Part shown: piece after piece, positions 12,025 to 21,233 of the stretch
Position numbering within the stretch: position 1 is the stretch's first letter
Layout: the number at the start of each line of letters is the position of its first letter
Assembly: GCA_963793095.1 (NCBI GenBank)
Contig: CAWBYY010000004.1
Location: 305,107 to 369,106 of the forward strand
Length of the DNA: 64,000 nt
Source: an uncultured Chloroflexia bacterium
Lineage (GTDB): Bacteria; Chloroflexota; Anaerolineae; Anaerolineales; UBA4823
Reading direction: 5' to 3'
Position numbers and translations under genes: made by a program
The notes under the pieces: generated by a model
Seen by the model: only the letters and a program-made list of their open reading frames with translations
What the model was told of the DNA's origin: nothing
Database searches by the model: none

Positions 12025-12468
12025 TTAATTATCTGATACGAAATCTCTTATCCCCAGCAAGGCTAAACTGTAAGACCTCCAGCCGAATCCAGAGATTTTT
12101 CCCAGACAAACTGGTGAAATTAGAGATTTTCGCCGGAAAGATTTCCTGGAGTCAACGTTGGATAAATGAACTTCAATAACTGGAATTCCGATCCCAGCAA
12201 TTGCATCCCTCAATGCTACTGAAGTATGGGTATATCCACCCGGATTAAATACAATCCCATCTGCCCATTTTCTGGCTTCCTGGATCGCATCGATTAATTC
12301 TCCCTCATGATTAGATTGCTGGGTCCGCAGTTTGATCCCCATTTCTTCACACATTTTTAGCAGCCAGCTGTCCAATTCATTTAGGGATTGGGATCCGTAA
12401 ATCTCCGGCTCACGCTCTCCAAGCATGTTCAAGTTCGGACCGTGAAGTACAAGGATATTAATCATCAA
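12025..12468 (-). CDS. aroQ: Type II 3-dehydroquinate dehydratase
   Basis: LHGPNLNMLGEREPEIYG, QSNHEGELID, NPGGYTHTSVALRDA and EVHLSN. Confidence 0.97.
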   Translation of the reverse strand: MMINILVLHGPNLNMLGEREPEIYGSQSLNELDSWLLKMCEEMGIKLRTQQSNHEGELIDAIQEARKWADGIVFNPGGYTHTSVALRDAIAGIGIPVIEVHLSNVDSRKSFRRKSLISPVCLGKISGFGWRSYSLALLGIRDFVSDN

Positions 12469-14039
12469 ATACCTCCAGCTTTCAGGAATTCTTCGTCATC
12501 TATCTCGATCCCCCACTTAACTTCGCCTATTCTGACTGGCAAAACTGCTTTTAATTTTCCCGATACTCGTTTTTTGTCCACTCCCAGAGCTGATTTTATT
12601 TTATCTCGATCCAGCGATCCTGGAATTTCCACCCTCAGATCAAGGGCTCTCAGAGCGCTGGAAATTATTTCTTCCAAACCCGGTTCCCCGATTCCCAATT
12701 TTTCGGATACCCGGGCAGCGGCTACTATTCCGATTGCAACTGCCTCGCCATGTTTGATCGAATAACCGGATGCAGTCTCGATTGCATGGCCTAAAGAATG
12801 ACCCAGATTTAACACCGCTCTCTCTCCTTTCTCATAAGGGTCATTCTGAATCACTCTAATTTTTACCATCACCGCCCTGCTGATAATTTCAAACCATTCA
12901 TTTTCCAGCGCTTGTATCCCACTGCTGCACAATTGAAAGAGAACTGGATCGGCAATGATCCCGTGTTTCACCACTTCCGCCAGCCCATTTCGAATCTCCT
13001 CCACGGGCAAGGTGTTTAGCGTTTCCGGATCAACCAATACATAACCGGGGTGGTGGAAAGATCCAATCAGGTTCTTACCAGACGGTAGATCTGCGCCTGT
13101 TTTACCTCCCAGACTGGCGTCAACCATCGCCAGCAGGGAAGTTGGAAGGGCTGCCCACCGGATTCCACGTTTATATGTTGCTGCTGCAAACCCTGCCAGA
13201 TCACCCACTACACCACCACCCAAAGCGACAGCAGTAGAATTACGGTCAAGACCCGAATTTAGAAACCCTTCCCAGATTCGTTCGATTGTATTAATTGTTT
13301 TATATCCTTCACCTGGCGGAATGACTACATTATTTACAATGTAGCCTGATGCCCTGAGTGATTCAATAACACCTGCCAGGTGATAACGCGCAACATTCTG
13401 ATCGCTTACAATGCAGACTGGTTCGTTAAAGCCCCTGGATTGAAATGCTTCCCCAACTGACTTGAGGCTGCCTGGATTCACCCTTACATCATAGTCGTAA
13501 TCCTGCCCGTGGACCCGGAACATACCAATCATGATTTGAACTAATTCACACAACTTTGAAATATTAAATTTTGATGAATCCAGCTGGATTGGGAATGAAT
13601 CATAGTGATTTCTTCTCTCTACCAGCAAATCAGCCAGTTGAATTTCAGGATTTGAACTGACCAGCGGTCGTTCATGCTTGTCTTTATCCAATCGTTTTAA
13701 TAACACTTCGTAAGGGGAACGCAAACAAATTACTGGACCATTGTTTTCCACCAGAGAGCGGTTGCGATCATCCAGCAATGCTCCGCCTCCGAGTGCGACA
13801 ACCTGAACCCCTTCATTTACTGCTGAATTCAATTCTCTGCTTTCTAAATCTCTAAATCTAATTTCTCCCTCTTTCGAAAAGATGGTTGGAATATCCATTC
13901 CCGCAATCTCGGCAATTCTCCTATCAAGATCGCTAAAGGTGAGCTTCAATTCACGACCTAAATGCTCTCCCAGGGTGCTTTTACCCGATCCGGGAGGACC
14001 GTAAATGAAAATTTTTTCTTCTGATTGGTTCCCAGCCAT
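12465..14039 (-). CDS. aroKB: Bifunctional shikimate kinase / 3-dehydroquinate synthase
   Basis: N-domain GPPGSGKST, DLD, FRDLE and ALGGG; C-domain ALGGGVVGDLAGF, PTSLLAMVDASLGGKTG and LNLGHSLGHAIE. Confidence 0.95.
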   Translation of the reverse strand: MAGNQSEEKIFIYGPPGSGKSTLGEHLGRELKLTFSDLDRRIAEIAGMDIPTIFSKEGEIRFRDLESRELNSAVNEGVQVVALGGGALLDDRNRSLVENNGPVICLRSPYEVLLKRLDKDKHERPLVSSNPEIQLADLLVERRNHYDSFPIQLDSSKFNISKLCELVQIMIGMFRVHGQDYDYDVRVNPGSLKSVGEAFQSRGFNEPVCIVSDQNVARYHLAGVIESLRASGYIVNNVVIPPGEGYKTINTIERIWEGFLNSGLDRNSTAVALGGGVVGDLAGFAAATYKRGIRWAALPTSLLAMVDASLGGKTGADLPSGKNLIGSFHHPGYVLVDPETLNTLPVEEIRNGLAEVVKHGIIADPVLFQLCSSGIQALENEWFEIISRAVMVKIRVIQNDPYEKGERAVLNLGHSLGHAIETASGYSIKHGEAVAIGIVAAARVSEKLGIGEPGLEEIISSALRALDLRVEIPGSLDRDKIKSALGVDKKRVSGKLKAVLPVRIGEVKWGIEIDDEEFLKAGGI

Positions 14040-14042
14040 AAT

Positions 14043-15224
14043 CTACTGGTTGTTCTCCGGCCAGAAAATATGACCCTCGCCATTCAGAAAAATATCTTCA
14101 AGACGGCATTTTTTTAATTTTGCAAACCGGTCCTTGATCTCAGCCATATTGTCACCACCAAGTTTCTCAAGTAAAACATCCGCGATTGTAACCGCAACCA
14201 TTGCTTCAATTATTGGTACTGCCCGCGGTACCGGGCAGAAATCGGACCTCTCGTAGCGAGTATCGACCTCCTTTCCTGTATACAAATCGACTGTACGTTG
14301 AGGAATAAGGGTAGTCGCGATCGGTTTCATTGCCGCCCGCAGTACGATCGGCATTCCATTACTAATCCCGCCTTCGATGCCTCCTGCCCGGTTGGTCGGA
14401 CGGTGCAGAACATTTCCCCTGAGTTCAACTGGATCATGTACTTTTGTGCCTTGCAAACGGGTGTTTTCAAACGCAGGGCCAATTTCACAACCTTTAATCG
14501 CCTGGACGCTCATAACTGCCGCGCATAGCCGGGCATCCAGCCTTCGATCCCATTGTATGTAAGAACCGAGCCCGGGGGGTATACCAAGAACTATAGTTTC
14601 GATTATTCCACCCAGTGTATTTTTGTCCTCCATAACCCTTCGAATGAGGGTTTCCATTTCAATGCTTTTCCCCTTATCCGGACATCTGACCGGACTTTCC
14701 TCCGCCAGATCAATCCGCTCCTTTAAATCTACATTTTCTACATCAGCAGCAATATCTCCTATTGATATTACATATCCTCCAACCTTTACATTTAATGATG
14801 TCAGAAACTGCTTGCATATCGATCCTACAGCTACTCTGGCGGCTGTCTCCCGGGCGGAGGCTCTTTCTAACGCTGGGCGCAGATCGTTATAGCCGTATTT
14901 TAATGTGCCAGTAAGATCTGCGTGACCCGGTCTCGGTGCAGTTAAAGGAGGGATTATTTCGCCTTTCCATTTCAGGTGATCGCGGTTCTTTATAATTACA
15001 GAAATCGGTCCCCCGGTTGTTTTGCCTTCCATGTACCCGCCTATAATCTCAGCCTGGTCTGATTCAATTTTCATCCGGGGTCCAGCTCCATAGCCTTTCT
15101 GCCGGCGGGCTAAATCCGCATTTATTTTGCCTAGCGATAATTCCAACCCTGCCGGTACACCCTCCAAAATTGCGACCAGTCCAGGTCCATGGGACTCCCC
15201 TGAAGTTAAGAATCTAATACTCAT
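14043..15224 (-). CDS. aroC: Chorismate synthase
   Basis: RFLTSGESHG, RRQKGYG, PRPGHAD, ERASARETA, GGIEGGISNG, MKPI and RSD. Confidence 0.97.
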   Translation of the reverse strand: MSIRFLTSGESHGPGLVAILEGVPAGLELSLGKINADLARRQKGYGAGPRMKIESDQAEIIGGYMEGKTTGGPISVIIKNRDHLKWKGEIIPPLTAPRPGHADLTGTLKYGYNDLRPALERASARETAARVAVGSICKQFLTSLNVKVGGYVISIGDIAADVENVDLKERIDLAEESPVRCPDKGKSIEMETLIRRVMEDKNTLGGIIETIVLGIPPGLGSYIQWDRRLDARLCAAVMSVQAIKGCEIGPAFENTRLQGTKVHDPVELRGNVLHRPTNRAGGIEGGISNGMPIVLRAAMKPIATTLIPQRTVDLYTGKEVDTRYERSDFCPVPRAVPIIEAMVAVTIADVLLEKLGGDNMAEIKDRFAKLKKCRLEDIFLNGEGHIFWPENNQ

Positions 15225-15226
15225 AT

Positions 15227-16388
15227 CTATATCCAGTTTTGTAATCTTTCCATTGCTTCCACTATTCTTGCCAGTGTTTGTACAAGAGCGATCCGAATAA
15301 ATCCCTCTCCGTTTTTTCCAAATACAGTTCCCGGCGTAAAACTCACCCCAGTATTTTCCAGGGCGGAGTTAACAAAATCATCACTTCTTCTGCCCCCGGG
15401 TACTGGGCACCACACGTACAGCGTTGCGCCAGAAATAAACGGTCTTAAACCCATTTTATGCAGGTAGCTGATCACAACCTCTCTTCTCTGGCGGTATTTT
15501 TCATTTCGGGCAGTCCTCCACTGCTGGTCACCGGTAAGCGCTTCGACAGATGCCTCAATGATTGGTTTAAAATGGCCGCTGTCAATGTTTGTTTTTAATT
15601 TATAAAAATTTGAAATGGCAGCTGGATTTCCGACAACCGCACCTGACCTCCATCCAGCCATGTTATGCGATTTTGAAAGTGAATTGAATTCAACCGATAC
15701 ATCAATCCCGTACTCGCAGTCCAGTATACTGGGAGCAGTTGAATTGTCATCAAGCACCTGGGTATATGCTGCATCATGGCAAAGTATAAATTTGTGTTCC
15801 ACTGCTGATTCAATAATTTTTTTAAAAAAATCCTTCGATGCAGTCGCGCTGGTAGGGTTATTTGGATAATTGAGCCAAAATAATTTTGATCTCTCCAGAA
15901 TAACTGTATCAAGCTGTTCCAGATCAGGTAAATAATGGTTTTCTGGCGATAATGGCAGTTTGACCACTTCCCCTCCTGCAAATAACGCCGCTTGCTCGTA
16001 AGTTAAAATATGCCGGGTCAGGAACCAGCACCACGTCGCCTTTATTAATAAACGACTGGGTCAGGTTGAAAATACCTTCTTTTGATCCTAATAACGGCAA
16101 AACCATGGTCTCAGGATCCAGATTGACATTGTATTCACGCTTATACATGCTTGCCCAGGCTTCCCTCAGATTATTGGTTCCCTTATGAGGCTGGTAACCA
16201 TGCTCATCCTTGTTTTTTGCGTGAAGAATCAATTTATCAATAATGGATTCAGAAGGCGGCATATCTGGTGAACCTACATCCAATCTGATCACATCAACCC
16301 CGCTTTTCTGCATTTTTTGAATTGTCCTTCCCTGGTTAGCGAAGAAAAGTTGATTCAGATTATCCATTCTTCCAGCAGGTTCAATCAT
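15227..16388 (-). CDS. Class I/II PLP aminotransferase (DapL-like) inside the aro operon; one +1 frameshift
   Basis: LDVGSPD, LLGSKEGI, PDPAY, LNYPNNPT, HDAAY and EFNSLSKSHNMAGWRSG. Removing one base from the A-run at 16005-16008 restores PDPAYLTYEQAALFAGG. Confidence 0.88.
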
Positions 16389-16389
16389 A

Positions 16390-17307
16390 TTATTTACTCC
16401 CTCGCTTTTCGATCTCGATTGACTGACGCATAAATTCAGTTGAAGGTGATTTTCCAGTCCATTTTTCGAAAGCCAGAGCAGCCTGCTCCACAAGCATACC
16501 TAATCCTGATGTTGCGTATAAATTTTGCTGGTTAGCAAGTTTAACCAGTCTTGTGACTCCTGGATTATAGATCAGATCGTATACAAGCGCATTTGCAGGC
16601 AGATCTCTCTCATTAAACCACGGGCTGCTATTAACATCCGGCCACATTCCTGCGGAGGTGGCATTGACCAATAAATGCACCGGATGTTGTATTGAATTGA
16701 TTTCTTCCACCGAAAGCTTTATTGATTTCACTGCCCAGCCCCCCCAAAACTGATTAATTCTATGCGCAATTTCATTACTTTTTTCAACTTTCCGAGCAGC
16801 AAGGGTTACCTGCCAATTCTCTCTTATCAATCCATACACCACTGCCCGGGCAGCCCCGCCTGAGCCCAATGTCAGAGCATTGCGCTGCTCTAGACATCTC
16901 GGATCTGATTCATCAGGAAGGGAATTAAAAAAATTATTAAGGTCTTTCAAAAAACCGCTTACATCAGTATTGTCACCAATGAGCTTATTTTGATCCAGAA
17001 ATATTGTGTTCACTGCCCCAGTTTGGTCAGCAGTATCTGTGAGTCCATCCAGGTGTGTGATAACGGTTGTTTTATAAGGTATGGTTACATTTAAACCAAC
17101 AATTCGACCCTGTTTAACCTCATCCAGGATTTTACTCAACCGGTCTTCCAGGTATTTATCTGCTGGAATTGGATACAGCTTATATTCGCCATCCAGGTTT
17201 GTGTCAGCAAGCGCAGCGGTATGTAATTTTGGAGACAGGCTGTGCTCCAATGGATATCCAATTAAACCCAGTGAATAGAACTTCTTCGCCGACATAATCT
17301 GAAACAA
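16390..17307 (-). CDS. aroE: Shikimate dehydrogenase
   Basis: GYPLEHSLSP, GLNVTIPYK, GAVNT, GDNTD, GSGGAARA, DLIYNP and GLGMLVEQA. Confidence 0.96.
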   Translation of the reverse strand: MFQIMSAKKFYSLGLIGYPLEHSLSPKLHTAALADTNLDGEYKLYPIPADKYLEDRLSKILDEVKQGRIVGLNVTIPYKTTVITHLDGLTDTADQTGAVNTIFLDQNKLIGDNTDVSGFLKDLNNFFNSLPDESDPRCLEQRNALTLGSGGAARAVVYGLIRENWQVTLAARKVEKSNEIAHRINQFWGGWAVKSIKLSVEEINSIQHPVHLLVNATSAGMWPDVNSSPWFNERDLPANALVYDLIYNPGVTRLVKLANQQNLYATSGLGMLVEQAALAFEKWTGKSPSTEFMRQSIEIEKRGSK

Positions 17308-17310
17308 GAA

Positions 17311-18684
17311 TTAAGTAATTTGTATATCTGCCCCTAGATACTTGAAAATATTTACAAAATCCGGAAATGATTCTTCAATTACTTCTGCACCATTTACCCG
17401 GATTTCATCCTGGCTTGCCAGTCCAGCAACAGCCAGAGACATCGCCAGGCGATGGTCGCCGTATGAAACCACATCTCCACCTGAAACCTGATGGCTTCCA
17501 TCGATAATAAAGCCATCAGGTTTCTCTTCGATTTGGACGCCAATTTTGGATAACTCAGAACAAATTGCGGCGATCCTATCCGATTCTTTATATCTTAATT
17601 CCTGCGCATCCATAACCCTGGTCTTACCTTCTGCATATGCTGCAGCAACCGCAAAAACAGGAAATTCATCAATCATCCTGACAATATCCAAACCGGATAT
17701 TTCCATTCCTTTTAACCTTGAACTGCGAACAATCAGATCGGCAACCGGCTCATCGTTTAGTAACTGCTGGTTTCGAATTTTAATGTCTGCACCCATCTTC
17801 TGCAGAACCTCCAGTAATCCAATTCGGGTCGGATTAACCCCTAAGCCCGTTATTTCAATTTCAGAATCCTGGCAGATCAACCCTGCTACTAAAACAAATG
17901 CCGCAGATGAAAAATCACCTGGCACAGTCATCCTGAGAGGAGACAAGCCTTTATTTTCTGGAGGGAAAATCCTGGTAATAAAATTGCCTCCGGAAGGTTC
18001 CTTTACTTCACTTATATCATCACCACTGATCTTATGTATTTCCACTCCCATTGTTTTTAACATTCTTTCCGAGTGGTCTCGTGACGGTCCCGGTTCAATT
18101 ACGGTAGTCTCCCCCTCCGCTGCCAGGGCTGCTAATAGTATGCATGTCTTTACCTGGGCGCTCGCAACCGGGAGTGAATATTTTATCGATTTCAATGGGA
18201 TTGGTGCCCGGCTGATTTTCAAAGGTGCGCATCCATCCTTATCTTCAATAGGTACACCCATTTGTTGAAGCGGCTTAACAATCCGAGTCATGGGCCGTTT
18301 ACGCAAACCTTGCGATCCATCCAGAACAGCGGATTTACCCATTCCGGGTAGTGCTCCCGCCAGCATTCGCATCGTAGTGGCTGAATTACCGCAGTCAATT
18401 TTCCTTACTAGATCTTTAAATTCTGGTGGATTCTTCAGGATGCCTTTTCCAGATATTTTTAACGTGGTCCCTTGAATTTCCCATATGAAACCAAGTTCAT
18501 ATAAACCATCCAGCATCGCCCGGGTCACTTTAGATTTCAGAAAATTCGATATCTCACTTTCACCCTCAGCCATTGCACTGAACAGCGCCGCCCGGTGGGA
18601 TATAGATTTATCCCCGGGAATATTTAATTCGTTCTGACTGCTGAGATTTCCTTTGAGTGGTTTACCGGATTTGATCTTTAACAT
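17311..18684 (-). CDS. aroA: EPSP synthase
   Basis: PGDKSISHRA, CGNSATTMR, SAQVK, RDHSERML, IDEFPV, KESDRI and DHRLAMS. Confidence 0.97.
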   Translation of the reverse strand: MLKIKSGKPLKGNLSSQNELNIPGDKSISHRAALFSAMAEGESEISNFLKSKVTRAMLDGLYELGFIWEIQGTTLKISGKGILKNPPEFKDLVRKIDCGNSATTMRMLAGALPGMGKSAVLDGSQGLRKRPMTRIVKPLQQMGVPIEDKDGCAPLKISRAPIPLKSIKYSLPVASAQVKTCILLAALAAEGETTVIEPGPSRDHSERMLKTMGVEIHKISGDDISEVKEPSGGNFITRIFPPENKGLSPLRMTVPGDFSSAAFVLVAGLICQDSEIEITGLGVNPTRIGLLEVLQKMGADIKIRNQQLLNDEPVADLIVRSSRLKGMEISGLDIVRMIDEFPVFAVAAAYAEGKTRVMDAQELRYKESDRIAAICSELSKIGVQIEEKPDGFIIDGSHQVSGGDVVSYGDHRLAMSLAVAGLASQDEIRVNGAEVIEESFPDFVNIFKYLGADIQIT

Positions 18685-18726
18685 AAATATCTTCCATAAA
18701 ACAGGAACTGAAGCGAGTTGGTTTTT

Positions 18727-19617
18727 TTATCTTTTTTTCATTTCGGTGAAGGTTTGGGCAGCAGCTGTGATTATTTTTCTCAATTCTGAGTAATCTTCCT
18801 TTTCAAGAATAACTTTTATCTTTTGAAAATGATTTCCGTATTGATCCATCGTTTCTAAAATATTAGTACGGTTTGTCACCAAAATATCCATCATCATATT
18901 GATATCACTTCCCGCAAGCCTCCCGGTGTCGCGGAAACCTGGCCCAATAAGTATAGTTGACTCCGGTGGTGTACTTAAGGCAAGAGTGATTGCAGTTAAA
19001 TAAGGAAGGTGGCTGGTTGAAGCGATTAATTTATCATGCACATCCGCCTCCACCCAGACCGGAATCGCCCCTATCCTGACGACCAATTCCTCAGCCAGGT
19101 GGCTGGCTTTAACGCTGGTCCGTTCCATTTTTGTTAAACAGAAAGGCGCATTCAGGTAAAGATTGCTTTCAGCATATACGATAGAAGATTTGTCCTTGCC
19201 GCATATTGGATGTCCGCCAATAGGGTCAAAACGTGGAGGAAGCGTTTCAAATGCATCTACAATCCCTTTTTTTGTCGAACCAATATCCAAAATGACTGCG
19301 CATCCGTTATGAATTTCAGGCATTTGTTTTATTAGTTTAATAATCGATAGAACTGGCGCTGCCAGGATTACCAGGTCAGAATTGTGGAGCATATCATCCG
19401 GGTTCGCAGACACATGATCAGCCAGTTTTTTATTGATCATTGCGTCTAAAGTTTCCAGGTTAGGATCATAAGCATAGATTTTCTTGCATTTCCCTCGTAA
19501 AGCCATTGCGAGGGAACCACCCATTAATCCCAGCCCAAAAATCGCTATACGGGAGGAAGAAAGAAAATCCGATTTTTGCCTATCATGACTTTGTTGTTTT
19601 TTCTCTGATTCAACCAT
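18727..19617 (-). CDS. tyrA: Prephenate/arogenate dehydrogenase (TyrA, no ACT domain)
   Basis: GLGLMGGSLA, DIGSTK, GGHPICG, HD..IA..SHLPY and GPGFRD. Confidence 0.93.
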   Translation of the reverse strand: MVESEKKQQSHDRQKSDFLSSSRIAIFGLGLMGGSLAMALRGKCKKIYAYDPNLETLDAMINKKLADHVSANPDDMLHNSDLVILAAPVLSIIKLIKQMPEIHNGCAVILDIGSTKKGIVDAFETLPPRFDPIGGHPICGKDKSSIVYAESNLYLNAPFCLTKMERTSVKASHLAEELVVRIGAIPVWVEADVHDKLIASTSHLPYLTAITLALSTPPESTILIGPGFRDTGRLAGSDINMMMDILVTNRTNILETMDQYGNHFQKIKVILEKEDYSELRKIITAAAQTFTEMKKR

Positions 19618-19655
19618 CTAAGACATATCCAGGATTATTTTGTAAACAACAAAAT

Positions 19656-20675
19656 TTACCGACTGATAGTTCGGCCTACTGCCTGAGCGACCGCTTCGAC
19701 TTCTTTCATCATGTCTAGAAATCGCTCTGGCTTAAGGGACTGCCCGCCATCACTGAGAGCTTCACCGGGATTGGGGTGGACTTCCACCATGAGACCGTCC
19801 GCTCCTGCTGCGATCCCAGCCCTTGCGACTGCGTTTACATACTCCCAATGTCCTGTGCTGTGGCTTGGATCCAGGATTACCGGCAGGTGGGTCAGCGATT
19901 TCAAGACCGGAATGGCGTTGATATCGGTTGTATTCCGGGTAGAGGTCTCAAATGTACGAACCCCCCTCTCGCAGAGAATTACCCTTTTATTTCCATGAGA
20001 GAGAATGTATTCAGCAGCCATTAATAACTCTTCCACGGTTGCCATCATGCCTCGCTTTAATAACACCGGGTGTCCACTTTCCCCAACCTCATGGAGCAGG
20101 TTGAAATTCTGCATATTACGGGCTCCGATTTGAAGGACGTCCACATATGGCATCATTATTTGGATCTGAGATATGCTCATAACTTCAGTCACAATTGGCA
20201 GACCCGTCACTGCTTTTGCCTCTGCCAGCAGTTCCAGCCCTTCTTCCCTCAAGCCTTGAAACGAGTAAGGTGAGGTTCGCGGTTTATATACCCCTCCCCT
20301 GAGAGCATGCGCGCCGGCGTTTTTAACCGCTTTTGCGGCTTCTAATATTTGCGACCGGCTTTCTACCGAGCAGGGACCCGCAATAATCACCACACCCTTA
20401 TCGCCTATTTTCATGCCATCAAAATTGAAAATTGAATTCTGGGGTCTGAACTCCCGAGAGGCAAGTTTAAAAGGTCTTGATATCGGCAACACCCGGTCTA
20501 CGCCCGGCAAATGTAAAAATTGATCTTTAAAGACCGGACGGCTCTCACCCACCGCGCCGATAATAGTCCTCTCTTCCCCGGTTGAGATATGGGCAGTCAG
20601 ACCAAATGATTCAACCCGTTTAACGACAGTTGTTATTTGCGGTTCTGTCGCATCGGTTCGCATAATTATCATCAT
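19656..20675 (-). CDS. aroF: DAHP synthase, type I-beta with N-terminal regulatory domain
   Basis: IAGPCSVES, YKPRTSPYSFQG, QIGARNMQNF, LCERG, DPSH and IEVH-like MVEVHPNP. Confidence 0.96.
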   Translation of the reverse strand: MMIIMRTDATEPQITTVVKRVESFGLTAHISTGEERTIIGAVGESRPVFKDQFLHLPGVDRVLPISRPFKLASREFRPQNSIFNFDGMKIGDKGVVIIAGPCSVESRSQILEAAKAVKNAGAHALRGGVYKPRTSPYSFQGLREEGLELLAEAKAVTGLPIVTEVMSISQIQIMMPYVDVLQIGARNMQNFNLLHEVGESGHPVLLKRGMMATVEELLMAAEYILSHGNKRVILCERGVRTFETSTRNTTDINAIPVLKSLTHLPVILDPSHSTGHWEYVNAVARAGIAAGADGLMVEVHPNPGEALSDGGQSLKPERFLDMMKEVEAVAQAVGRTISR

Positions 20676-20705
20676 GTCGGTATCCTCCTAGACTATCTTT
20701 CATCC

Positions 20706-21080
20706 TTATGAAACATTATCAGATAAATCCGGCCGTAATATTTTCGCCTCTCTGAGATATACATGCCGGATTTCTTCCTGAGTCAATTCCGTGTTCCAGT
20801 GGATAAGTACCCGGATGCACTTTTCCAAACTATCTGGAGCAGTTATCTCCTGGGAACCAAATAATGGGACCATGCACCATCCAATTTGGCGGGCTGCTTT
20901 AGCAGGGAAAACAGCATCCAGGTCCTCCGTGACGCTGAAAAATACACTGGCGATTGAGTCTGGTTCCATCTCCGGATTTCTTTCTAGGATTGTCTCCAGC
21001 AATTCCCGTGTGGCATCCAGGATCTGCTCTTTGTTATTTTTTGTTACTGTTATCGCTCCGCGTACACCCCGGACTGGCAT
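20706..21080 (-). CDS. aroH: Chorismate mutase, AroH class
   Basis: MPVRGVRGAIT, FFSVTEDLDAVFPA, CIRVLIH and HVYLREAKILRPD; start placed at ATG 21080. Confidence 0.95.
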   Translation of the reverse strand: MPVRGVRGAITVTKNNKEQILDATRELLETILERNPEMEPDSIASVFFSVTEDLDAVFPAKAARQIGWCMVPLFGSQEITAPDSLEKCIRVLIHWNTELTQEEIRHVYLREAKILRPDLSDNVS

Positions 21081-21093
21081 AATCTTCTTCTCC

Positions 21094-21126
21094 AAATAAA
21101 AAATGCGAGACCGCTGGCCTCGCATT
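21094..21126 (-). terminator. Intrinsic terminator in the aro operon leader (attenuator terminator)
   Basis: Minus strand AATGCGAGGCC-AGC-GGTCTCGCATT-TTTTATTT: 11-bp stem with one G.U and a U-tract, ending about 14 nt before the aroH ATG. Confidence 0.85.
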
Positions 21127-21155
21127 CTGGATAATATTTATTCTATCTTTTCCGC

Positions 21156-21233
21156 TTACGCGTAACCAACGGCTGCATTATTTATGCTGCCATAATAATA
21201 GTAAGCAGAAAAGTATAACTTTATCTTAATCAA
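21156..21233 (-). CDS. Tyr-rich leader peptide (25 aa) MIKIKLYFSAYYYYGSINNAAVGYA
   Basis: TTG start, run TAC TAT TAT TAT, 6 Tyr and 1 Phe in 25 codons; lies between a promoter and a terminator ahead of the tyrosine pathway operon. SD is weak. Confidence 0.8.
   Translation of the reverse strand: MIKIKLYFSAYYYYGSINNAAVGYA

Follow-up and report, generated by a model that had tools for sequence, protein, structure and literature searches.

A DapL-like aminotransferase encoded in an aro operon of an uncultured Anaerolineales bacterium probably serves the tyrosine and phenylalanine branch

What does a gene that resembles the LL-diaminopimelate (LL-DAP) aminotransferase DapL do in the middle of an operon for aromatic amino acid synthesis? 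The question is raised by a stretch of 64,000 nucleotides (the window) on contig CAWBYY010000004.1 of the assembly GCA_963793095.1 (G000), which derives from an uncultured Chloroflexia bacterium of the order Anaerolineales. On its minus strand, an aminotransferase gene (AT, 15227..16388) lies between aroE and aroC. Its ATG (16388) follows the aroE stop at a distance of 1 nt, and 2 nt separate its own stop (15227) from the ATG of aroC, matching the spacing of 1-2 nt given in the initial annotation. That annotation proposed that AT supplies the aromatic or prephenate aminotransferase of the operon. The present analysis supports this proposal at the level of sequence: AT probably acts in the tyrosine/phenylalanine (Tyr/Phe) branch and is not DapL, because it fails the DapL equivalog model, the genome lacks dap genes, and AT falls in an aro-linked clade with lost DapL residues, fusions to aromatic-branch enzymes, a nearest structure in BacF and a Tyr/Phe-rich leader upstream of the operon.

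AT is a class I (fold type I) pyridoxal 5'-phosphate (PLP) aminotransferase. Its reading frame is divided by a frameshift, discussed below, and scoring and residue numbering used the two halves of the window gene together with two intact proxies, namely P0001 from the same-genus genome G002 and P0003, a 386-aa protein from an independent assembly that is about 95% identical to AT. PF00155 matches the two halves with 117.5 and 54.2 bits, and K239, D205, Y208, N177 (nearly invariant), R247, R365 and Y65 are conserved among 23 homologs. Among NCBIfam models, those for DapL (NF006756 and TIGR03540) match best, and records at JGI and some at NCBI name close homologs "LL-diaminopimelate aminotransferase", just as had been expected of automatic annotation. 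Both matches lie below the curated cutoffs. On TIGR03540, the DapL equivalog (cutoff 593.25 bits), the window halves score 297 + 120 bits, P0003 432 (431.7) bits, P0001 430 (430.3) bits, and the aro-linked homologs L077, L056 and L026 score 403, 407 and 457 bits, respectively; on NF006756, P0003 reaches 447 bits against a cutoff of 507. P0003 therefore falls about 160 bits short of the equivalog cutoff, which is passed by the dap-linked relatives scored (L076, L062, L075 and L058): Dehalococcoides mccartyi (596 bits), another member of the Dehalococcoidia (630 bits), Methanospirillum (638 bits) and a metagenome-assembled genome (MAG) of the Thermodesulfobacteria (630 bits). Two homologs with neither context, from Bellilinea and Thermosporothrix, score 498 and 522 bits. 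Other models fit less well, including the DapL1 model TIGR03542 (146 bits on P0001, cutoff 364.7), the DapC models TIGR03538 and TIGR03539 (186 and 178 bits, cutoffs 475 and 356) and NF005977 for BacF/MtnE transaminases (345 bits, cutoff 494), and the aspartate aminotransferase models are far below their cutoffs.

The pathway in which DapL would act appears to be missing from the genome. In a profile search of the source genome (90% complete), no match to dapB, dapF or lysA was detected, and dapA was represented only by a DapA-family paralog (127 bits, cutoff 206); the absence of the pathway was confirmed by tblastn with Anaerolineales DapA, DapB, DapF, LysA and DapL1 proteins. Therefore, neither the substrate of DapL nor the downstream steps are encoded. 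A clear LysW/alpha-aminoadipate cluster was likewise not found in this genome; two LysW-like matches (32 and 24 bits; C1:44813-47950) were rejected, being small open reading frames (ORFs) with greA, a Ddl-like ATP-grasp gene and transporters as neighbors. Nor were dapF and lysA found in two same-genus genomes. Among 31 genomes of the order, dapF is present in 5, dapB in 5 and lysA above cutoff in 9; a close AT homolog is present in about 25. One of them, G019, encodes a true DapL1 (TIGR03542, 525 bits, cutoff 365) beside dapB-dapA-lysA, with a separate copy of the AT family elsewhere in the genome. In the sampled Anaerolineales, a complete DAP route such as that compact dapB-dapA-lysA-DapL1 cluster (L023:2092-6818) is rare.

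The gene neighborhoods of the homologs divide along the same line. Nine relatives sampled from a single order and 8 further named Anaerolineae MAGs retain the arrangement aroA-aroE-AT-aroC-aroKB. Family members directly follow aroQ in L032, L034, L038 and a Thermotogae MAG, and in L056 the gene lies between tyrA and aroA, preceded by ilvE-pheA-aroH-DAHPS-tyrA, where DAHPS is 3-deoxy-D-arabino-heptulosonate 7-phosphate (DAHP) synthase. In Bacteroidota L077 it lies between prephenate dehydratase (PDT) and prephenate dehydrogenase (PDH), in the order pheA-AT-tyrA-DAHPS/CM-aroA (CM, chorismate mutase). On the dap side, 16 Dehalococcoidia homologs are directly downstream of dapF, the Thermodesulfobacteria homolog follows dapA-dapB and the Methanospirillum homolog precedes lysA. 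In a tree of 93 rows, 16 of the 18 dap-linked homologs form a Dehalococcoidia clade (support 100), the remaining two being placed outside it with the basal rows. Sister to this clade is one of 61 Ktedonobacteria/Anaerolineae rows without a single dap-linked member, inside which 25 of 26 aro-linked rows, including the window AT and the Bacteroidota copies, form one group (support 90); the nested all-aro sets that hold the window AT have supports of 96-100. The aro label changes 3 times on the tree, compared with a mean of 23 after shuffling. The phylogenetic comparison with DapL that the initial annotation had recommended thus places the window AT in an aro-linked clade apart from the dapF-linked one.

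The sister of the aro-linked group consists of 17 Anaerolineae copies with neither aro nor dap neighbors (L020, L033, L035, L036, L039-L041, L043, L046, L048-L050, L053-L055, L065 and L068). These carry a mixed signature, aro-like at F15, P45, N235 and A244 and DapL-like at V129 and Y241. L043 (the Bellilinea copy), the only member for which a DapL model score was obtained, has an intermediate value of 498 bits, and at least one host genome, G021, is without dapF and dapB. Within the aro-linked group, the Bacteroidota copies (L077, L090, L093, L099, L100 and L104) and four fusion proteins (P0131, P0159, P0174 and P0222) nest in the Chloroflexota clade near L056, which suggests a horizontal transfer of the gene between the two phyla.

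Nine alignment columns separate dap-linked from aro-linked members (P0001 numbering): L15F/Y, T45P, P66Q, V129T, H235N, Y241H, T244A, G355V/I and Y356F. The first states are common to dap-linked members of other phyla (four phyla) and the second are shared by the Bacteroidota aro-linked members. The window AT has F15, P45, Q66, T129, N235, H241, A244 and V355, that is, the full aro signature and no state shared with DapL. Retention of DapL-specific residues had been named as an outcome that would speak against an aromatic role; all eight dap-shared residues are replaced. Three of the signature residues, Q66, T129 and H241, occur only in the aro-linked clade; they are neighbors of Tyr65, of the PxYxxY loop and of the catalytic Lys239. 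From this position beside known active-site motifs, the signature residues may contact the substrate. We define here an aro-linked DapL-like subfamily by this signature (F/Y15-P45-Q66-T129-N235-H241-A244-V/I355) together with clade membership, and the window AT has both.

Fusion proteins and structural comparison point in the same direction. Among representatives at 50% identity, three PDT-AT fusions and one AT-PDH fusion were found. All four have the aro signature in the AT domain, and these domains group within the Bacteroidota aro-linked clade (support 100), which the 93-row tree places beside the clade of the window AT. Two further fusions among the representatives, P0176 (formyltransferase-AT) and P0263 (Orn/DAP-decarboxylase-AT), keep DapL-like residues, and P0263 is a possible LysA-DapL Rosetta stone. 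The AlphaFold2 model of P0003 has a predicted local distance difference test score of 92.6, and its best match in the Protein Data Bank (PDB) by Foldseek is Bacillus subtilis BacF, with a TM score of 0.95, a root-mean-square deviation of 1.7 Å and 36% identity. BacF, an enzyme of the bacilysin pathway, transaminates tetrahydro-4-hydroxyphenylpyruvate, a prephenate-derived ring-pyruvate. The next matches are the uncharacterized aminotransferases 2X5D, 2O1B and TTHA0342, followed by archaeal aromatic and aspartate aminotransferases. The 1-beta prephenate aminotransferases (Arabidopsis 5WMH and Rhizobium 6F77) rank only 34-44 with 22-27% identity, and Mycobacterium tuberculosis DapC (2O0R) ranks 45 with 22% identity; no DapL1 structure is among the PDB matches listed. 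AT is therefore not a member of the class Ib aspartate/prephenate aminotransferases with which the initial annotation had asked for comparison.

The operon around AT spans nine minus-strand genes (12025-21125), which together encode the complete set of seven shikimate steps as well as chorismate mutase and TyrA. In the order of transcription, these are aroH (20706..21125; AroH-type chorismate mutase, TIGR01796, 147 bits), a DAHP synthase gene with an N-terminal ferredoxin-like domain (19656..20675; NF006421, 500 bits, and PF18152), tyrA (18727..19617; prephenate or arogenate dehydrogenase with PDH_N and PDH_C domains), aroA (17311..18684; 5-enolpyruvylshikimate-3-phosphate synthase, TIGR01356, 400 bits), aroE (16390..17307; shikimate dehydrogenase, TIGR00507, 223 bits, above cutoff), AT, aroC (14043..15224; chorismate synthase, NF003793, 420 bits, above cutoff), an aroK-aroB fusion (12465..14039; shikimate kinase and 3-dehydroquinate synthase, TIGR01357, 347 bits, and a SKI domain) and aroQ (12025..12468; type II 3-dehydroquinate dehydratase, NF003807, 200 bits). 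The aroH model begins at residue 18 of the ORF, and translation probably starts a few codons downstream of the first codon of that ORF. Profile annotation of all nine genes bears out that AT is the sole gene of the operon without an assigned step. The companion claim that no step but transamination lacks a gene holds within the operon; genome-wide it does not, as three to four aspartate aminotransferase-like genes, hisC and others are present. The pheA gene is on another contig, unlinked to the operon.

Upstream of aroH, a leader ORF with a TTG start (21156..21233, minus strand) encodes a peptide rich in Tyr and Phe codons (LYFSAYYYYG...), ending in KLYFSAYYYYGSINNAAVGYA before the stop, and a terminator-like G+C hairpin followed by a T-run was read from the sequence between leader and aroH (21100..21130, minus strand). 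Tyr/Phe-rich leader ORFs precede aroH in 8 of 8 related Anaerolineae aro operons, often ending in AVGGA before the stop. Against Rfam, the leader region gave only chance-level matches (Phe_leader, 20.6 bits versus 55). Leader and hairpin look like a classic attenuator layout, which would represent leader-peptide attenuation in Chloroflexota and would tie the expression of the operon, and hence of AT, to the supply of Tyr and Phe.

From these observations, we infer the substrate, amino donor and regulation of AT as follows. AT would belong to a distinct aro-operon-linked subfamily of class I PLP enzymes, derived from the same stock as DapL2 and now serving the Tyr/Phe branch. Lys239 would carry PLP as a Schiff base, with Asp205, Tyr208, Asn177, Arg247 and Tyr65 of the partner subunit holding the cofactor and Arg365 binding the substrate alpha-carboxylate. 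The enzyme would be charged to the pyridoxamine 5'-phosphate form by an amino donor, for which glutamate and aspartate are the likeliest candidates. It would then aminate one of two kinds of acceptor, namely 4-hydroxyphenylpyruvate and phenylpyruvate at a stage following TyrA and PheA, or prephenate at a stage preceding both, yielding arogenate. AT would be co-transcribed with the shikimate pathway, chorismate mutase and TyrA under the putative attenuator.

It is very improbable that AT is instead a genuine DapL2 that merely happens to be sited in an aro operon and makes LL-DAP for lysine or the cell wall. This reading can draw on the DapL models as best NCBIfam matches, on AT being the top TIGR03540 match of its genome, and on the homologs of about 40% identity in Dehalococcoidia, Methanospirillum and Thermodesulfobacteria that are dap-linked and pass the DapL cutoff. 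It also recalls the suggestion of GapMind 2020 (PMC7311316) that Echvi_0124 of Echinicola vietnamensis, next to the TyrA gene Echvi_0125, is a possible diverged DapL. These points are outweighed by the shortfall of 160 bits, by the lack of dapB, dapF and lysA and the weak dapA paralog, a pattern repeated in most relatives that keep AT, by the replaced DapL-clade residues in a clade where AT is never dap-linked, and by the Tyr/Phe leader on the operon; moreover, GapMind 2026 (PMC13759103) fills the lysine gap of Echinicola with an alternative DapE of the succinylase route. It is also quite unlikely, if slightly less so, that AT is a broad-specificity housekeeping enzyme of the aspartate, alanine or methionine type with no special aromatic tie. 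Class I aminotransferases are promiscuous, and AlaC-like, MtnE-like and aspartate aminotransferase-like models do match AT at 290-350 bits, but a housekeeping role would not explain the linkage to aro, pheA and tyrA through at least four gene orders in two phyla, the PDT and PDH fusions, or a clade-specific signature beside active-site motifs.

Within the aromatic branch, AT may be specifically a prephenate aminotransferase (PAT) of a fourth evolutionary class, with TyrA and PheA of these bacteria acting on arogenate; we regard this as a serious possibility, although not the favored one. Like prephenate, the substrate of the ancestral DapL is a keto acid with two carboxyl groups; the aro type has gained the polar residues Gln66 and His241 beside active-site motifs, and an arogenate route would accommodate the fusions to PDT-family and TyrA-family domains. 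Context and fusions fit keto-acid transamination equally well, however, and BacF, the nearest solved structure, uses a monocarboxylic ring-pyruvate. The evidence from the window TyrA is divided: its closest structures are the prephenate-specific Aquifex PDH (114 bits) and, farther off, the Synechocystis arogenate dehydrogenase (ADH, 90 bits), a difference that does not settle its specificity, and at a side-chain-contacting position it resembles neither, reading SHLPY where the Aquifex PDH has SHLPH and the Synechocystis ADH has SHLPV. No residue-level determinant is applicable here. The "position 222" rule for TyrA (Schenck 2017, PMC5681985) was rejected for the window TyrA, which is clade III-like and belongs to a group in which this position is variable, the Chloroflexi TyrAs covered in that work being Dehalococcoidia clade II sequences; determinants that distinguish arogenate dehydratase from PDT (PMC13217925) are plant-specific and were not applied.

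Several points weigh against assigning AT to the Tyr/Phe branch. No paper characterizing the aro-linked clade, and no biochemical or genetic data for any of its members, was found in the literature, and context, phyletic pattern and fusions are indirect support for an aromatic role. Part of the signature may be owed to common descent instead of function, as the Bacteroidota copies nest in the same clade, and the tree was obtained by a quick IQ-TREE search under the posterior mean site frequency (PMSF) approach with SH-aLRT supports only. The other class I aminotransferases of the genome and HisC could transaminate aromatic keto acids. Finally, at 90% completeness the absence of dap genes is not absolute.

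The frameshift in AT requires separate consideration. Position, strand and PLP type were correctly recognized in the initial annotation, PF00155 matching both halves, but the span is not one intact ORF, which had been overlooked: translation table 11 yields two overlapping frames, 15924-16493 and 15227-15967. With one T left out of the run at 16005-16008, the whole gene comprises 386 codons, and NF006756/TIGR03540 likewise match both halves. Its N-terminal frame (16008..16388, minus strand; residues 1-127, ending in VPDPAY) is 96% identical to residues 1-127 of P0003, and its C-terminal frame (15227..16003, minus strand; residues 129-386 and the stop, beginning with TYEQAAL) is 94% identical to residues 129-386 and contains the catalytic Lys239 (SLSKSHNMAGWR), Asp205, Tyr208, Asn177 and Arg365. 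The gene is thereby split into parts of 127 and 258 aa, the frame shifting past residue 127 at a run of four T with one extra T, a +1 frameshift site. In the DNA alignment with three orthologs, this appears as a single-base gap (TATTTTAAC in the window, TA-TTTAAC in the orthologs), and P0003 reads PDPAY-L-TYEQ, as expected from the window AT with one T removed. The AT gene of G002, 79% identical, is also intact.

A true pseudogene, with a real frameshift in this strain and the function passed to another aminotransferase, would be consistent with the extra T in the assembly as given and with the several other class I aminotransferases of the genome. We consider it unlikely, since the halves are otherwise clean, with no further stops, and closely match an intact protein from an independent assembly. 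Furthermore, at least 104 genes are split likewise in the source assembly (12 contigs, 4.5 Mb), 78 of them in the +1 class of AT; this is a lower bound from a conservative screen for adjacent different-frame ORFs that match consecutive parts of an intact paralog. The break lies in a homopolymer and so many splits share its class that a systematic indel error in the assembly is indicated, and similar breaks occur in the same aro operon of G005 and G001, two related few-contig MAGs. The frameshift is thus most likely a homopolymer sequencing or assembly error, and the organism probably has an intact gene. Programmed frameshifting was rejected because the orthologs and P0003 are all in one frame. 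The splits in this assembly are biased about 3:1 toward one shift class. Given the systematic indel errors, any pseudogene call in it needs read-level support. Another class I aminotransferase paralog (G000:C2:504141-505028; L004/L110) is N-terminally truncated, with an open frame from about profile position 95, and its truncation is probably another frameshift artefact.

If AT indeed acts in the Tyr/Phe branch, the pipeline name DapL wrongly ascribes a lysine/DAP step to Anaerolineae and probably to many Bacteroidota, while the last step of Tyr/Phe synthesis stays unassigned. The consequences would extend to metabolic reconstructions, to gap-filling tools and to predictions of auxotrophy in uncultured Chloroflexota, all of which would change. 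AT would then represent another aminotransferase lineage that was recruited to aromatic synthesis and is widely mis-annotated, the second example, after the DapC-type PATs, of such recruitment from the DAP pathway. The residue signature together with a TIGR03540 score window of about 400-460 bits offers a simple means to separate the aro type from DapL. If, in addition, AT is a PAT, Anaerolineae and many Bacteroidota would make Tyr, and perhaps Phe, via arogenate, and lysine synthesis would be the wrong assignment for thousands of database entries that bear the name "LL-diaminopimelate aminotransferase". AT is a ready target for deciding between the arogenate and keto-acid routes in these phyla.

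Among known systems, DapL2 (TIGR03540/NF006756) shares fold and family with the window AT, 39-42% identity between AT and dap-linked members and all PLP-binding residues; AT differs from it in scoring below both curated cutoffs, in forming a separate, never dap-linked clade, in residing in a genome without the DAP pathway and in the replaced dap-shared residues. Echvi_0124 is DapL-like too and adjoins the prephenate/arogenate dehydrogenase Echvi_0125; by gene order alone it appears to be of the Bacteroidota aro-linked type (L077, L093 and L100), whereas it was proposed in PMC7311316 as a possible diverged DapL. BacF (YwfG; 6L1L, 6L1N and 6L1O) shares the aro-type residues A244, I355 and F356, but belongs to secondary metabolism instead of primary Tyr/Phe synthesis, differs at positions 15, 45, 66, 129 and 241, and has a model (NF005977) whose cutoff the AT family does not reach. 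The known PAT classes, which are the 1-beta aspartate, branched-chain and N-succinyl-DAP (DapC) aminotransferases, act in the same branch as proposed for AT, yet AT is a member of none of the three. Graindorge et al. reportedly described, in 2014, the recruitment of DapC-type aminotransferases of the DAP pathway as PATs; that the aro-linked DapL-like clade constitutes a genuine fourth class of PAT, recruited independently of the others, is a tentative extension of this picture, and one that we hold somewhat doubtful.

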